Positions 11,512 to 41,153 of a stretch of 45,252 nt of DNA are shown in pieces (the first letter of the stretch is position 1; each line of letters begins with the position of its first letter). Source of the DNA: a virus; the IMG/VR virus record IMGVR_UViG_3300027852_000010. One strand, 5' to 3'. Both the position numbers and the translations under genes were made by a program. Below the pieces are notes generated by a model. The model did not search any database. It was not told the DNA's origin and saw nothing but the letters and a program-made list of their open reading frames with translations.

Positions 11512-11534
11512 CTTTGTTTAAAATTTGAATGAAG
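11512..11534 (-). promoter_or_regulatory. 24-nt phage motif copy M1 (CTTCATTCAAATTTTAAACAAAG) upstream of the polymerase gene
   Basis: Read directly. Followed by AAAGGAGGGAAC and then the TTG start. Confidence 0.8.
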
Positions 11535-11536
11535 AA

Positions 11537-11716
11537 TTAATGTTTTAGTTCCCATTCTTCCACTTCTCTGCAATGATCTTCTAAAGCTTTTTGTTTAGCT
11601 TTAAGATATTCAGGAGATTTTACTATAAGCTTAATATAACTTTTATGAACATTTTCAGCAACTAAGATATCTGAGATACTTTCACGATTAAAATTATCTA
11701 CTTGGATAATCTTCAT
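11537..11716 (-). CDS. Hypothetical small protein (59 aa, below the ORF-track cutoff)
   Basis: Hand translation gives MKIIQVDNFNRESISDILVAENVHKSYIKLIVKSPEYLKAKQKALEDHCREVEEWELKH. SD AAGGGAATGTT is present. The ORF fills an otherwise empty 226-nt gap. Confidence 0.6.
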   Translation of the reverse strand: MKIIQVDNFNRESISDILVAENVHKSYIKLIVKSPEYLKAKQKALEDHCREVEEWELKH

Positions 11717-11725
11717 AACATTCCC

Positions 11726-13117
11726 TTAGAAATTCTTATGAATCTTAATGATATAGCTTTCAAAATACTCCTGACTAAGATCAAAGCCAATAGATACCAT
11801 GTTATTCTGAGCTGCAGCTATCATAGTATTCCCACTTCCTGCGAATGGCACAAGTACATTAGCCCCAGGAGCTGCAAATACATTCAGAATATCTTTTAAA
11901 AGAGCTACTGGGCGTTCAGTTGGATGTACTTTAGATTGAGCAGGGACAGGTTTATAGTTAAATACATTCACAGTTCCCCGTCGATTTAATTCAGGTACGC
12001 CTTTTCTGGCAAGAAAGAACATTTCATATCCCTTTCCGAGATCTCTATGAGGTTGCATAGTTTGCCCAGATATATTGGTAACTCCATCTTCAGTAACTTC
12101 TCCTTTTGCCCAGATTGCAGGCATTCTTTTATTTTTAAATCCTGCATTTATGAGAGTATTATGAACAGTCTCAAACCACGGATCAGGCCCGAACCAGCAG
12201 ACTAACCAACAGTTAGGTTTAAGGACTCTAAAACATTCAGTAAGTAAGTCTCTGAGAAAAGTAGGGTACTCATTCTTATCTACTTCATTATAACCAGTAT
12301 AAGAATAATCCTTCTTCTGATCTTCAAGATCTATTCCATACGGAGGGTCAATCTCAATAAAATCCATAGTAGAGTCTCCGATCTTCTTAACTCCCTTAAA
12401 AAAATCTTCTACATGATAAGATCCTATAAGTTTAGATTTCTTACTCTCCCCATCTCCCATAGTTTTCTTAAATTGTTTTGCATCATTTTTCTGTTGAATA
12501 ACTTTTTTAACGTGCTTAATAGCTTTCTGGGCATCATTTTTAGTTTTAAATTTACTCCAATCTATATCAGGTGTATTCTTCATCATCTTTGCAAGACTGA
12601 TATCTCCTGAAAGAGATCCTTTAGATTTCCCTGTCATATTTGAGAGATCTTGTAAAGACCAACCTGGAGCATCTTTTGCAGTAGATGTCTTAACCCCATG
12701 AATCTGCTGTTGGAGATCTTGAATATGCTCTTTAAGATTGCACTCTTCCTGCCAAGTAAAATCCTTTCGGTATAAATTCTCTGCAAATTCTAAGACTCTC
12801 ATTTGAAGTTCAGGAAGTTTTTCAGGATAATATCTACAGGAGATAACTTCTGACTGTTTTTTCTGATCACAGAGATGCTTAAGAGCAGCATATCGTCTAC
12901 CACCTGCAACAAGTTTATAAGGAAGCTCTGCGGAATCTAAGTTCTTCTGAACTGCCAGAGGCTGAATCAGGCCATCTTTATTAATTGATGCTGCAAGGGC
13001 TTCTAAGTTTCCAAGATCTTCTCTAAATCTTTTACCTACTTCTATCTGAGATAATTTTATATCTATTAATTCTATCTGACTAATCTTAGTATTCAGATTA
13101 ATTTTACTTCTCTCCAT
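11726..13117 (-). CDS. ParB-like nuclease domain fused to a beta-class N4/N6 DNA methyltransferase
   Basis: Motifs read: LIQPLAV...LVAGGRRYAAL (ParB N-terminal box), IEIDPPYGI (motif IV), VLKPNCWLV and VLVPFAGSGNT (motif I). Confidence 0.85.
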   Translation of the reverse strand: MERSKINLNTKISQIELIDIKLSQIEVGKRFREDLGNLEALAASINKDGLIQPLAVQKNLDSAELPYKLVAGGRRYAALKHLCDQKKQSEVISCRYYPEKLPELQMRVLEFAENLYRKDFTWQEECNLKEHIQDLQQQIHGVKTSTAKDAPGWSLQDLSNMTGKSKGSLSGDISLAKMMKNTPDIDWSKFKTKNDAQKAIKHVKKVIQQKNDAKQFKKTMGDGESKKSKLIGSYHVEDFFKGVKKIGDSTMDFIEIDPPYGIDLEDQKKDYSYTGYNEVDKNEYPTFLRDLLTECFRVLKPNCWLVCWFGPDPWFETVHNTLINAGFKNKRMPAIWAKGEVTEDGVTNISGQTMQPHRDLGKGYEMFFLARKGVPELNRRGTVNVFNYKPVPAQSKVHPTERPVALLKDILNVFAAPGANVLVPFAGSGNTMIAAAQNNMVSIGFDLSQEYFESYIIKIHKNF

Positions 13118-13370
13118 TCTTTTTCCCCTTTATCTTTAAAAGCTTCTGTAGTAGAGCTTGTTTTTCAATTGCACTTAGTTGTGTTAAGTCAGGTTTTATA
13201 GTTAGTTTCTTCTGTTTAGATTTCTTTCCCTTTAGCTTTGGCTTTTTCTGAGAAACTTTTACTTTTACTTTTTTGAATTGTCTTCTGAGGTTTCTGATAT
13301 TTCTAATATGTTCTCTGAGTTCCTCGTCTGAGAATTCAGATATACTTTTATATAAAGATCCTATATCCAT
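13104..13370 (-). CDS. Hypothetical Lys-rich basic protein (88 aa)
   Basis: SD GAGGATTAGCA lies before the ATG. The ORF overlaps the downstream gene start. Confidence 0.65.
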   Translation of the reverse strand: MDIGSLYKSISEFSDEELREHIRNIRNLRRQFKKVKVKVSQKKPKLKGKKSKQKKLTIKPDLTQLSAIEKQALLQKLLKIKGKKNGEK

Positions 13371-38949: not shown

Positions 38950-39437
38950 TGGAACTTATTCCAAGAGGTGCTAATTTTACTGTAAGCCTAAATGCTCAAG
39001 ATCTCTCAAGAGGCTTAAGGGTTTCTAAAAGATCATTAAGAAATTCTGGATATTTAGTACAGAGTTCTGGAGCTGTGGGGCGAGATGGAGTTCTTCAAAC
39101 TCTTGATGATATGTCTCAAGAAGATTTCTCAATCATCACAGATGGCTTTCCTTATCCTCAACTCTTTGTCTTTTCAAATCTAATAATTGTATGTGGAGAG
39201 ACTCAGATATATGAGATGGTTTTAGGAGTGCTTACTTTGAAGATTACAGTAACTGCTGGAGTTTCTTGGGAAGCAATATCTTCTGGTGAGTATGTATATA
39301 TGTCTAATGGAAAAGTTTCTGTAGTAAGAGATCCTCTTGATCTTACTTATAGTCTTTCAGATCTTCCAACAGCTTCTTGCATTTGTAACTTTAACGGGCA
39401 GATTATAATAGGATCTCCTGATGAGGACTTATCATGA
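38949..39437 (+). CDS. Structural-module protein (162 aa)
   Basis: TAATG overlap upstream and ATGA overlap downstream. Confidence 0.75.
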   Translation: MELIPRGANFTVSLNAQDLSRGLRVSKRSLRNSGYLVQSSGAVGRDGVLQTLDDMSQEDFSIITDGFPYPQLFVFSNLIIVCGETQIYEMVLGVLTLKITVTAGVSWEAISSGEYVYMSNGKVSVVRDPLDLTYSLSDLPTASCICNFNGQIIIGSPDEDLS

Positions 39438-40654
39438 GTAACATATGGCCTTTTACTAAACAGCCTCCTAAATACGGATATATAAATAATCCTAATTGGA
39501 GAGCAGACCCTGAACATACTAATAAGCATAATCCCTGTGGGTACTGGCCTGCTGGGGCTGAGATGCCAACCCAGCCTAATGTTAACTATATCTTATGGTC
39601 TTGTGGGAGATATGCATATGAGGCTCTTGGGCGAGATCATGCTGATAATAATATATTTCTTCCAATGGATGATCCAGAACATTTTTATAAGGCATCTCTT
39701 GGAAATGGTGGAGGTTTATATATTAAGCAAGATAAATCTCTCTGGGGACTGGGGATTAATCAAGGTGGACAATTAGGAACTGGGGATAAAGTATCTCTTG
39801 ATATTGTGACTCAGATAGGTACTGATGAGGATTGGGAGGAGGTTACTCGAGTTGGAAATCTTCATACTCTTGCGATTAAGGAAAATGGAACTTTATGGGC
39901 AGCAGGGGATAATACGCATTGGCAACTTGGACTTGGAGATGATATTGAAAGATTAACTTTTACTCAAGTTGGGACAGATAATGATTGGGTAAAGGTTCAT
40001 TCTATATCATATTCTTCTTATGCTATTAAGGAAGACGGAACTCTATATTCATGGGGAGATGGAGGAAATGGTAATCTTGGCCATGGGAATAATGTTTCGT
40101 ATTCTCTTCCTGAACAAGTTACTATAAACGGAGATGGATTTGATAGTCTTACTGGGGGCTATTATTCTGTTATTGGACTAAAATCTGGTAAACTCTGGGC
40201 TTGTGGATATAATCTTTATGGTCAGCTATGTCTGGATAATACAACAGCTACAAATGTTTTTGTAGAAAGATCTGCTGGAGAGACTTGGGATAATGTACAC
40301 TCTGGTCATATGCATACTATGCTTGTTAGAAATGATGGAACTCTTCATGGAGTTGGATTAAATGTATCTGGAAATTTAGGTCTTGATCATCAGAATAATA
40401 TATCTATTGTAACCCAGGTAGGGACTGATACGGATTGGTGGAAGGTTCAAGCTAATGGAACATCTGCTTTTTCAATGGCTCTGAAAATAGACGGTTCTTT
40501 ATGGTCTTGTGGAAATAATTTTTATGGACAACTTGGGCTTAACTCATTTAATCCTCAGGGGCCTATAGTATTTACAGAAGTTGGGGGAACTTGGGGAACA
40601 GTTCTCTGTGGTGATAGTCACTCTCATATTGGAGAAGTAGTTTACGATTGGTAA
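39434..40654 (+). CDS. RCC1-repeat (beta-propeller) protein, candidate receptor-binding or tail protein
   Basis: Six or seven repeats of about 50 aa, each ending in a G-x-L-G-x-G-type signature: GQLGTGD, WQLGLGD, GNLGHGN, GQLCLDN, GNLGLDH and GQLGLNS. Confidence 0.8.
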   Translation: MSNIWPFTKQPPKYGYINNPNWRADPEHTNKHNPCGYWPAGAEMPTQPNVNYILWSCGRYAYEALGRDHADNNIFLPMDDPEHFYKASLGNGGGLYIKQDKSLWGLGINQGGQLGTGDKVSLDIVTQIGTDEDWEEVTRVGNLHTLAIKENGTLWAAGDNTHWQLGLGDDIERLTFTQVGTDNDWVKVHSISYSSYAIKEDGTLYSWGDGGNGNLGHGNNVSYSLPEQVTINGDGFDSLTGGYYSVIGLKSGKLWACGYNLYGQLCLDNTTATNVFVERSAGETWDNVHSGHMHTMLVRNDGTLHGVGLNVSGNLGLDHQNNISIVTQVGTDTDWWKVQANGTSAFSMALKIDGSLWSCGNNFYGQLGLNSFNPQGPIVFTEVGGTWGTVLCGDSHSHIGEVVYDW

Positions 40655-40676
40655 TAAATAAAAAAGGAGAAGAATT

Positions 40677-41129
40677 ATGGCTAATGCGGTACCTAATAGT
40701 TTTAAAGTAATGCTCTGGAAAGGGCAGATAGAAGGTCTTACTGATGTCTTTAAGATAATCTTAATGCAGCCAGGTTTTGTTTTTGATCAGGATTCTCATC
40801 ATGATTATGCTGATGTTATTGCAGATGAGCTTCCGACTGGAAATGGATATATAGCGGGAGGAGCTACTCTGGCAGGTATATCTATTGATGTAAATAATGT
40901 ATCTGATAGAGTTGAAGTAACTTTTAATAATGCTCAATGGGATGCTACAGGAGGGTCTCTTCAAGCTTCTGGAGCTATTATTTATAATGATTCTACTCTA
41001 ACATCTGGTGGAGATGATTATACTGATGCGATAGTTTCATACAAAGATGCTGGAGGGGATTTATTAGCAGTTGTTGGAACACCTATAATCATCAGTTCCA
41101 TTATGGAAACTATTGAAGATAAAATATAA
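40677..41129 (+). CDS. Structural-module protein (150 aa)
   Basis: SD AAAAAGGAGAAGAATT is present. Confidence 0.75.
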   Translation: MANAVPNSFKVMLWKGQIEGLTDVFKIILMQPGFVFDQDSHHDYADVIADELPTGNGYIAGGATLAGISIDVNNVSDRVEVTFNNAQWDATGGSLQASGAIIYNDSTLTSGGDDYTDAIVSYKDAGGDLLAVVGTPIIISSIMETIEDKI

Positions 41130-41153
41130 CTATGTTTAAATTTTAAACGGAGG
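41130..41153 (+). promoter_or_regulatory. Phage motif copy M15 (CTATGTTTAAATTTTAAACGGAGG)
   Basis: Read directly. Confidence 0.75.

Follow-up and report, generated by a model that had tools for sequence, protein, structure and literature searches.

We analyzed a 45,252-nt stretch of viral DNA (IMG/VR record IMGVR_UViG_3300027852_000010), and in particular a 24-nt motif that recurs in short gaps between its genes. We refer to the whole stretch as the window. The window was assembled as a circular genome of 45125 bp whose ends overlap by 127 nt, and just 5.4% of the genome is intergenic. Two divergent arms of genes start from a control region at about 26.5 to 27 kb and converge at 5.88 kb. The annotated phage collection did not contain a near-identical phage. 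Among annotated phages, Desulfofustis phage LS06-2018-MD01 is the closest (48% identity for the capsid protein and 43% for the family A DNA polymerase, PolA), and its layout is the same.

A preliminary description of this DNA had reported about 15 copies of the motif, all of them intergenic and, except for one reversed copy, oriented with the downstream gene. The repeat is real: the pattern CTWYATTCAAAWTTTAAACRRAGG has 16 matches with at most 3 mismatches, versus none in 100 dinucleotide-preserving shuffles. Allowing 4 mismatches adds copies at 19403 (minus strand), 25371 (plus strand), and 7801 (minus strand), and there is also a palindromic variant, CTGTGTTCAATTGGTGAACATAG, at 25562 to 25584, so the genome has 19 to 20 copies. 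They occur on both arms and cluster in the control region. Sixteen of the 19 are fully intergenic (P of about 5e-18 given the intergenic share of the genome), and 16 of the 17 copies on the arms are co-oriented with the genes (p = 2.7e-4). The coordinates in the preliminary description were correct to within 0 to 3 nt, and we recovered its diverged copies (25371 and 25882) and its reversed copy (37595). We found no match within 6 mismatches at 30754, where it had placed a partial copy. The copies that it listed are indeed intergenic, but three that it did not list (549, 3840, and 7801) lie inside open reading frames (ORFs).

On the minus arm, most copies are packed tightly between genes. The copy at 11511 to 11534 lies between a 59-aa gene and the PolA gene; the copy at 13586 to 13609 is directly past a TAG stop codon and 10 nt ahead of a 67-aa gene; the copy at 15347 to 15370 adjoins the TAA of a nuclease gene, and its GGAG serves the following gene as ribosome site; and the copy at 17841 to 17864 is 1 nt past a TAA and 32 nt ahead of a MazG-like gene. 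Nearer the control region, the motif at 21122 to 21145 is 10 nt ahead of the GTG start of a gene for a candidate regulator (discussed below), and the copies at 23686 to 23709 and 24170 to 24193 flank a Fic gene: the former adjoins its TAA and is 9 nt ahead of a 670-aa gene, and the latter is 17 nt ahead of its likely start. This Fic-domain gene (23710 to 24153, minus strand; HPFTDGNGRSGR motif) is bracketed exactly by the two copies, like an inserted one-gene cassette, and a perfect tandem repeat (3.7 units of TTATGA, 24194 to 24215) lies directly upstream of the second one. Two copies on this strand are diverged, with 4 mismatches each. The one at 19403 to 19426 is a nearly perfect palindrome (GTTTAA-TTT-TTAAAC) and is followed by a stem-loop and a 103-aa gene; the one at 7801 to 7824 overlaps the last codons of the primase gene, and its AAAGGAGG serves the next gene.

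On the plus arm, the copy at 29084 to 29107 adjoins the TAA of the large terminase gene, and the same junction is occupied in two relatives (the Desulfofustis phage and L168). The copy at 32153 to 32176 precedes a 58-aa gene and the portal gene, and an element precedes portal in the Desulfofustis phage as well. The copies at 34506 to 34529 and 41130 to 41153 both adjoin a TAA and supply GGAGG as the ribosome site, of a scaffold-like gene and of a 144-aa gene, respectively. After the major capsid gene (37574 to 37618), there is a hairpin (GGAGGGA..TCTCTCC) and then the reversed copy (37595 to 37618, minus strand). When read on the plus strand, this copy gives a TTTGTTT run and then a GAAGG ribosome site, and the arrangement is kept in close relatives. 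The hairpin and the reversed copy are likely a terminator. Two plus-strand copies are in frame within an 1814-aa virion ORF: one has 3 mismatches (549 to 572), and in a close relative, an ATG follows it by 2 nt; the other has 1 mismatch (3840 to 3863), lies at the border between the methyltransferase-like and C-terminal parts of the protein, and is kept in L109. In-frame copies also occur in the giant ORFs of L118 and L109. We considered whether the TTTAAAC in such copies might be a slippery heptamer, but we dropped this as a coincidence.

In the control region, diverged copies at 25371 to 25394 (4 mismatches, orientation opposite to that of the arm) and 25882 to 25905 (3 mismatches), both on the plus strand, share a 733-nt non-coding region with the palindromic variant. 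A minus-strand copy at 26891 to 26914 lies between divergent early promoters. These three copies have an additional 15-nt 5' flank, CTMTTCCAYKCC, which gives a 38-nt long form (25356 to 25393 and 25867 to 25904 on the plus strand and 26887 to 26930 on the minus strand). The copies at 25867 and 26930 are mutually inverted and, between them, enclose the first early promoter with its 148-aa gene. A spacing of about 520 nt to the start codon had been proposed for the copy at 26891, which is doubtful, as a 55-codon ORF with a GAAGGA ribosome site begins 15 nt downstream.

The block consists of an imperfect 23-bp palindrome (half-site CTnnRTTYAAA) and one more base. On the coding strand, the element reads C1 T2 W Y A5 T T C8 A A A W12 T T T A16 A A C19 R R A G23, and in most copies its two arms agree at 8 to 9 of 11 positions. 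When the right arm is reverse-complemented (CTnnGTTTAAA) and set against the left arm (CTnnATTCAAA), the two are consistently separated by transitions. Most copies start 0 to 2 nt past the upstream stop codon and end with AAAGG or GGAGG, 4 to 12 nt before a start codon. As had been noticed previously, this 3' end doubles as the Shine-Dalgarno site: this is so in 10 of 16 copies, with the start codon 0 to 17 nt downstream. Gaps of at least 23 nt between same-strand genes are usually filled by the motif (13 of 19).

Promoters of the host type are scarce. In a promoter scan, near-consensus TTGACA-N17-TATGAT promoters were identified only at +26992, -26618, -25313, and -19956, plus one in antisense orientation at +24276, which agrees with the earlier statement that they are confined to the control region and a few early genes. 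The promoter at 26992 to 27020 (plus strand) is a TG-extended consensus sigma-70-type promoter (TTGACA-17-TATGAT). The ATG of the small terminase gene is just 6 nt past its -10 box, so this mRNA would be leaderless. On the minus strand, consensus sigma-70-type promoters at 26590 to 26618 and 25285 to 25313 serve the first early unit and contain two GTGATA repeats within the spacer, respectively, and a TTGACA-17-TAAAAT promoter at 19928 to 19956 precedes a 143-aa gene. The near-consensus promoter at 24276 to 24305 (plus strand, TTGACA-18-TATGAT) is opposed to the minus-arm genes and may be the source of an antisense transcript. The three strongest promoters share an extended similarity of 36 to 43 nt. 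In positions 1 to 17000 and 37001 to 45252, no promoter with 11/12 matches was found. When we scanned 30 ORFs, including all of the large ones, against Pfam and PHROGs, we did not find an RNA polymerase or a sigma factor, as had been reported, nor did we recognize an integrase or a repressor. Searches of Protein Data Bank (PDB) sequences with the 670-aa and 1814-aa proteins were empty; for the 1814-aa protein, the negative result for a polymerase is at the sequence level, and remote homology is not excluded by structure. Rfam and tRNA scans of the window were also empty.

We then compared the motif across related phages, as the preliminary description had suggested. The Desulfofustis phage has nine dispersed copies of CTATGTCCCAAATTGGGACATAG, which keeps the 23-nt frame and the outer CTATG/CATAG but differs in the inner bases. 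About 40 further uncultivated relatives, identified via PolA and TerL (37 to 88% identity), each have their own 23-bp palindrome with the same geometry: outer CT..G / C..AG, 5-bp half-sites, and an A/T centre, in 3 to 12 dispersed copies per roughly 20 kb. The versions in different lineages include CTATGTTCAAtttTTGAACAAAG, CTATGGTAATTTAATTACCAAAG, CTATATTACATTATGTAACATAG, CCTCATTGAAAATTTCAACGAGG (12 copies in 21 kb), GAGCGGTCAAnnnTTGACCGCTC, and GTTCGTACGATTATCGAACGAAC. The half-sites vary jointly between phages, while within one phage the copies are alike, and orthologous junctions (before PolA, after TerL, before portal, and after the capsid gene) carry the version that is specific to the genome. 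This joint change, together with the genome-specific versions, is as predicted if the sites co-evolve with a phage-encoded, sequence-specific, symmetric binder. Close relatives (about 70% protein identity) have the motif at 0 to 1 mismatches, and a relative with 48% G+C, whose PolA is only 42% identical, keeps the A/T-rich sequence of the window exactly. Sites also cluster in control regions. In L181, whose TerL is 35% identical, a different palindrome (ATGCRA-N5-TYGCAT at 3533 to 3562, 4370 to 4401, 6594 to 6623, and 12552 to 12581) keeps the 5-bp half-sites and the 5-bp spacer, and the outer CT..AG is absent.

Single junctions can differ between lineages. The junctions before PolA and after the nuclease gene have the motif in the window but a plain stop codon and Shine-Dalgarno site in a 65%-identical lineage (L111-L116). 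A member of this lineage, L222, has four copies of a GTTCG version (CTAYGTTCG-N5-CGRACRAAG), and another, L116, has an asymmetric copy ahead of the 67-aa gene, so only single junctions differ. We also considered whether the motif might be a host element. The exact 20-mer is scattered, once each, in 70 unrelated genomes out of 185,579 species genomes, at loci that are unrelated to the phage, which rules this out.

We built a positional logo from 107 oriented copies in 26 phages. Outside the 23 bp, it contains only an abutting TAA (positions -2 to 0) and a weak purine run. No -35 or -10 at a fixed distance was seen on either side, which extends the earlier observation that no -35 element is conserved upstream, and positions +24 to +70 are without information. 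Since the logo has no further information beyond the 23 bp, the element is self-contained. The half-sites are at positions 5 to 9 and 15 to 19, and the mirror positions 1, 2, 6, 7, and 9 are paired in at least 97 of the 107 copies. A stop codon ends 0 to 3 nt ahead of the element in 42 copies, and an open start codon lies within 20 nt downstream in 68. Five relatives (L115, L118, L122, L119, and L123) have the element at the convergent junction between the arms, where no gene starts; in L118, this junction has two copies, each of which adjoins a stop codon. At such a place, a promoter or an enhancer of a ribosome site makes no sense, while a stop or insulating signal does. In L123 (14403 to 14475), the motif is nested within a longer inverted repeat (ATCCCCAACTG ... 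CAGTTGGGGAT) with flanking runs of A and T, and this junction is like a bidirectional intrinsic terminator built around the element.

The preliminary description had proposed that the motif is a phage-specific promoter for middle and late genes, comparable to T4 late or T7-type promoters, at which either the host RNA polymerase is redirected by a phage factor or an unrecognized phage polymerase acts. The copies are indeed numerous, intergenic, co-oriented, and highly conserved; stretches of 14 kb and 24 kb on the arms lack strong sigma-70 promoters; the left-end variants TATATT and TACATT resemble a -10 box; and no function has been assigned to either the 670-aa early protein or the 1814-aa virion protein. 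Also, three copies in the early region of the Desulfofustis phage lie 5 nt upstream of a perfect TATAAT that has no -35 box, so that they occupy the -35 location. However, the element is palindromic, while promoter elements are asymmetric, and its commonest variant, CTTCATTC, lacks the -11 A. Because the ribosome site is within the motif and the start codon is 0 to 17 nt on, there is no room for a transcription start and a leader, and a transcript that began at or after the motif would be without a ribosome site. Copies at convergent junctions (two of them in L118) would fire antisense into the other arm, other copies lie within ORFs, one is reversed, junctions such as the one before PolA do without the motif in the 65%-identical lineage, and the scanned ORFs offer no sigma factor or polymerase. 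An activator-dependent sigma-70 promoter, in which the palindrome replaces the -35 box (P1 late and T4 middle promoters are of this kind), would have a -10 at a fixed distance downstream, and only the three copies in the Desulfofustis phage do. T4 late and T7-type promoters resemble the motif in being short, conserved, many-copy blocks ahead of genes on the coding strand, but they are asymmetric, are recognized by a dedicated sigma factor or polymerase, and are followed by a leader that holds the ribosome site. Given these observations, we consider a promoter quite unlikely, and the evidence favors the alternative in the preliminary description, a near-palindrome that is bound by a dimeric regulator.

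The AAAGG or GGAGG shortly before the start codon in most copies, together with the A/U-rich and unstructured sense RNA, could instead suggest that the motif acts in translation, as an extended ribosome-binding site or an A/U-rich enhancer for the downstream gene. The start-associated sequences of Cluster K mycobacteriophages would be a precedent. However, palindromy and symmetric, phage-specific change have no meaning for single-stranded RNA; the elements of the Desulfofustis phage, L122, and L123 lie 14 to 50 nt from the start codon and are separate from the ribosome site; and some copies are reversed or lie at convergent junctions. A role in translation is very improbable.

A third possibility is that the element acts at the RNA level, as a transcript hairpin that stabilizes 3' ends, that is processed or weakly terminates transcription, or that hides the ribosome site until it is melted by the ribosome that completes the upstream gene (translational coupling). 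Repetitive extragenic palindromes (REPs) would be one such case. The placement just after stop codons and shortly before start codons fits this idea, as do the elements at the 3' ends of the arms in five relatives, the terminator-like repeats in L123, and the reversed copy within the putative terminator after the capsid gene. The copies in the Desulfofustis phage fold at -7 to -14 kcal/mol, and REP-like elements are likewise imperfect palindromes that lie directly past stop codons, in transcribed but extragenic DNA. In the window, in contrast, the folding energy of the sense RNA is 0 kcal/mol for 13 of 16 copies; the antisense RNA folds weakly (mean, -2.3). Outside the window, the mirror pairs that are not Watson-Crick pairs include 38 G.U, 58 A.C, and 133 others, which is near the random ratio of 1:1:4. 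Thus, the mismatches are mainly transversions, and there is no excess of wobble pairs on either strand. Copies within a genome also keep their sequence, beyond mere pairing. No T run follows the motif, a terminator scan did not call any of the copies, Rfam gave no match, and the scanned ORFs do not include an HUH (RAYT-type) transposase, as might accompany a REP-like element. We rejected a hairpin function because of the folding energies and the mismatch types, and we consider an RNA-level element in general to be unlikely, if less so than a promoter. The lack of conserved hairpin stability and of a wobble excess argues for a double-stranded DNA operator.

The asymmetry of the window's element is relevant here. 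In a 68%-identical relative, the palindrome is perfect (GTTCAA...TTGAAC). Against this reference, the window's coding strand has G-to-A changes at positions 5 and 16 and a T-to-C change at position 4. These transitions turn pairs in the mRNA into A.C mismatches; the opposite transitions would leave G.U pairing. To judge from the sequences, there may have been selection against an mRNA hairpin while the purine/pyrimidine pattern of the DNA site was kept. Such hairpin-avoiding changes would make sense because the right arm, with its outer AG, holds the Shine-Dalgarno sequence.

A DNA site that acts outside of transcription should also be weighed: a nickase site, a loading site for a ParB-methyltransferase, a binding site for the small terminase, or homology boxes for the exchange of modules. 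Phages tf, T5, and phiKMV have localized single-strand interruptions. In phage tf, of the LUZ24 group, 14 nicks occur at TACT/RTGMC, and PaP3, which is in the same group, has putative sites with no nicks reported (PMC3517423). Like the window, these phages have a two-arm layout, a homologous small terminase (PaP3's), and 9 to 14 dispersed short words, and the core ACTATG is shared with some copies in the Desulfofustis phage, which read TACTATGTC. However, the nick sites are 9 nt and non-palindromic, they lie on one strand regardless of gene direction, and they are often intragenic, whereas the orientation of the window's motif switches with the arm. We rejected kinship with these sites: the capsid of LUZ24 is unrelated, only the small terminase is homologous, and LUZ24 lacks the palindrome family. 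We also did not find a nickase gene. The bracketing of single accessory genes by two copies (Fic in the window and a 57-aa gene in L109) would suit module exchange.

For the terminase and ParB, we looked for covariation with the sites. The protein at 27027 to 27554 (plus strand), which had been described as a leaderless protein with a helix-turn-helix (HTH) and suggested as the factor that recognizes the motif, is the small terminase. With a profile of 17 family members, its C-terminal half matches solved small terminases (7JOQ, E = 1.5e-5; PaP3 6W7T, E = 1e-3), and its N-terminal half matches LuxR/NarL HTH domains. A LuxR-type HTH would suit a 20-bp palindrome, but the recognition helix is nearly identical in phages whose inner half-sites differ, so we rejected it as the binder. 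The fusion at 11726 to 13117 combines ParB_N with a methylase and has a GGRR box and, by eye, a ParB-type HTH segment. Chromosomal parS has a TGTT at the same distance from its dyad as in the motif. ParA was not found. With the HTH as read by eye, we saw no covariation with the sites, either: across phages with different inner half-sites its helix is nearly constant, and the window and L124 share the motif while the helix differs. None of these roles explains the placement relative to stop codons and ribosome sites, and a DNA site of this kind seems rather unlikely, slightly more so than an RNA-level element.

Two other small proteins were considered. A family-wide 67-aa protein (13373 to 13576) has a strand-helix-helix pattern by eye and a weak hit to ParD, but it shows no covariation, and we rejected it. 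The protein at 25969 to 26415 had also been suggested as the factor. It lacks a DNA-binding signature, which does not support that suggestion, and its gene is conserved as the first early gene of at least two related lineages. In one relative, a gene that is annotated as a RecBCD inhibitor lies in the corresponding region.

The best candidate for the binder is a 111-aa early protein (20777 to 21112, minus strand), whose GTG start is 10 nt after a motif copy. We view it as a lead that is unproven and that comes from sequence comparison. Its N terminus (KRNLSVSVSC...ETRSGLVRQAVKFL) has a strand-helix-helix pattern, by eye, as in ribbon-helix-helix regulators. Clustering of early-region ORFs with BLAST did not identify a conserved regulator, and the family emerged only from a hidden Markov model (HMM) that we seeded by hand with five look-alikes. 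This found the family in 13 other lineages; the member from L222 was supported by hhalign (97% probability), and the member from L225 was recognized by eye. The family is present in every related lineage with a visible early region, and its most variable part is the N-terminal strand that would read the DNA.

We favor, at roughly even confidence, the explanation that the motif is a double-stranded DNA operator of a co-evolving, symmetric phage protein and that it punctuates two long operons that are transcribed by the host polymerase. In this operator, which would follow the pattern CT-nn-R-TTYAAA-W-TTTRAA-Y-nn-AG, two 5-bp half-sites would flank an A/T-rich centre at a spacing of about one helical turn. 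The binder would be phage-encoded and symmetric (a dimer or a dimer of dimers), with a specificity that co-evolves with the sites, and the 111-aa protein would be the best candidate. The sites take up the short spaces that separate the gene modules of either arm, and they are clustered in the control region. The bound protein would control transcription by the host RNA polymerase. At module boundaries and at the ends of the arms, it might be a roadblock or an insulator, like mycobacteriophage stoperators; where a site overlaps a promoter, as in the Desulfofustis phage, it might be a classical operator or an activator site.

Several observations weigh against this explanation. The main oddity is that a pure homodimer site would not be expected to show the constant asymmetry seen here (A5 and C8 on the left; G5 and T8 on the right). 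Roadblocks on both arms also have no obvious logic in a phage that appears to be virulent and in which no integrase or repressor was seen. As for the candidate binder, Pfam, a PDB profile search, and Foldseek gave no significant match for the 111-aa family, and hhalign comparisons with Arc and Mnt (using sequences entered by hand) and with the 67-aa family were not significant. The strand-helix-helix assignment is from visual inspection only. The AlphaFold prediction for the 111-aa protein was poor (pLDDT of 55); in it, residues 1 to 12 are disordered and helices span 13 to 25 and 34 to 51. The strand residues do not track the half-sites in a simple way; for example, the sites of L167 and L174 differ although their strands are almost identical. 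Finally, there is no motif-free lineage with a visible early region to serve as a negative control for the presence of the family.

Palindromic operators of similar size are known. The P22 Arc and Mnt operators, the conserved inverted repeats of phiC31, and the KorB sites of RK2 are palindromes of about 13 to 21 bp that are bound by dimers or tetramers; phiC31 and RK2 each have at least a dozen of them at intergenic positions across the genome. The window's site, like Arc/Mnt-type operators (about 21 to 23 bp), is two-fold symmetric with half-sites one helical turn apart. It differs from all three in having no sequence similarity and in being tightly packed against stop codons and ribosome sites, and its candidate protein has a putative strand-helix-helix fold.

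Three groups of phages have dispersed intergenic repeats that are comparable. First, the stoperators of Cluster A mycobacteriophages are 13-bp asymmetric sites that are bound by a monomeric two-domain repressor (L5 gp71) in temperate phages (PMC9283540, PMC6550527). As in the window, many copies are dispersed in short intergenic gaps on both arms and are oriented with transcription; also, their sequence co-evolves with a phage protein, and they are proposed to act by stopping elongating RNA polymerase (PMC9283540, PMC6550527). The window, in contrast, has a palindromic site of 23 bp with a predicted binder, and it shows no evident repressor or integrase. Second, the start-associated sequences (SAS) of Cluster K are 13 bp long, are not palindromic, and occur only in the non-structural half of the genome, and the related ESAS repeats are 17 bp with a variable spacer (PMC3203893). 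As with the window's motif, the Shine-Dalgarno core is part of a conserved block that lies a few nt ahead of start codons, one copy is reversed, and the upstream stop codon sometimes falls inside the block; their inverted repeats are specific to subclusters (PMC3203893). Unlike SAS and ESAS, the window has a single 23-bp palindrome on both arms, which in the family is also found at the ends of the arms. Third, T1-like phages (TLS, T1, and Rtp) have 21-nt repeats for which a stoperator-like or enhancer role was suggested (PMC11447400). There are about 18 intergenic copies along the direction of transcription in genomes that have no polymerase or sigma factor gene and few sigma-70 promoters, as in the window, but these repeats are direct and non-palindromic and lie about 76 nt upstream of start codons (PMC11447400). 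The element belongs to none of these groups, as it differs in symmetry, length, and placement; nor is it a T4-late or T7-type promoter, an intrinsic terminator, or a tf-type nick site. By analogy, in function it would be most like stoperators, and it is placed like SAS.

A few other features of the window are worth describing. The 733-nt region at 25236 to 25968 does not have a convincing ORF and contains several sets of repeats: three copies of TATCACCNA (25488 to 25514) face three copies of GTGATACNN (25767 to 25792) as a 48-nt inverted repeat, 207 nt apart; ACGTAGGTATGATG is repeated 2.8 times at 25388 to 25426; and a 20-nt unit is repeated twice at 25683 to 25723. The region looks like an iteron-type origin or a second set of operators. 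A 118-aa ORF (16900 to 17256, minus strand) matches only the C-terminal, glycyl-radical end of the anaerobic ribonucleotide reductase NrdD (PF13597, E = 1.4e-10). From its sequence, this fragment hints at an anaerobic host. The 670-aa early protein (21665 to 23677, minus strand) matches phrog_1735 from end to end (E = 9e-250), which is a widespread phage family with no assigned function; the protein has no match in Pfam or PDB and no homolog in the Desulfofustis phage. PolA (9004 to 11499, minus strand) has an N-terminal domain from the uracil-DNA-glycosylase superfamily, and this fusion is kept in relatives down to 37% identity. The structural arm ends with the 1814-aa ORF (433 to 5877, plus strand), of which residues 832 to 1051 are methyltransferase-like (phrog_24333); it has no further match in Pfam or PDB.

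More speculatively, and with well under even confidence, we suggest that the element and the fast-evolving early protein are a regulatory pair that has not been described previously: a palindromic, bidirectional "stoperator" that punctuates two very long operons of the host polymerase and whose specificity diversifies as immunity specificities do, in a large family of uncultivated podophages with a LUZ24/PaP3-like layout. If so, this would be a new class of protein-dependent punctuation of transcription, in phages in which lysogeny genes are not seen. Among cultured phages, dispersed intergenic repeats that are specific to the phage are known from a few groups (those with stoperators, start-associated sequences, or T1 repeats). 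The finding bears on how arms of 14 to 24 kb are expressed from one or two host-type promoters when a phage has no polymerase of its own. Annotators can use the element as a marker of gene boundaries and should refrain from scoring it as a promoter. The dozens of metagenomic lineages, with their fixed geometry and lineage-specific half-sites, are a natural series of variants of the site, and probably of the protein as well, and are material for working out the recognition code and the function.

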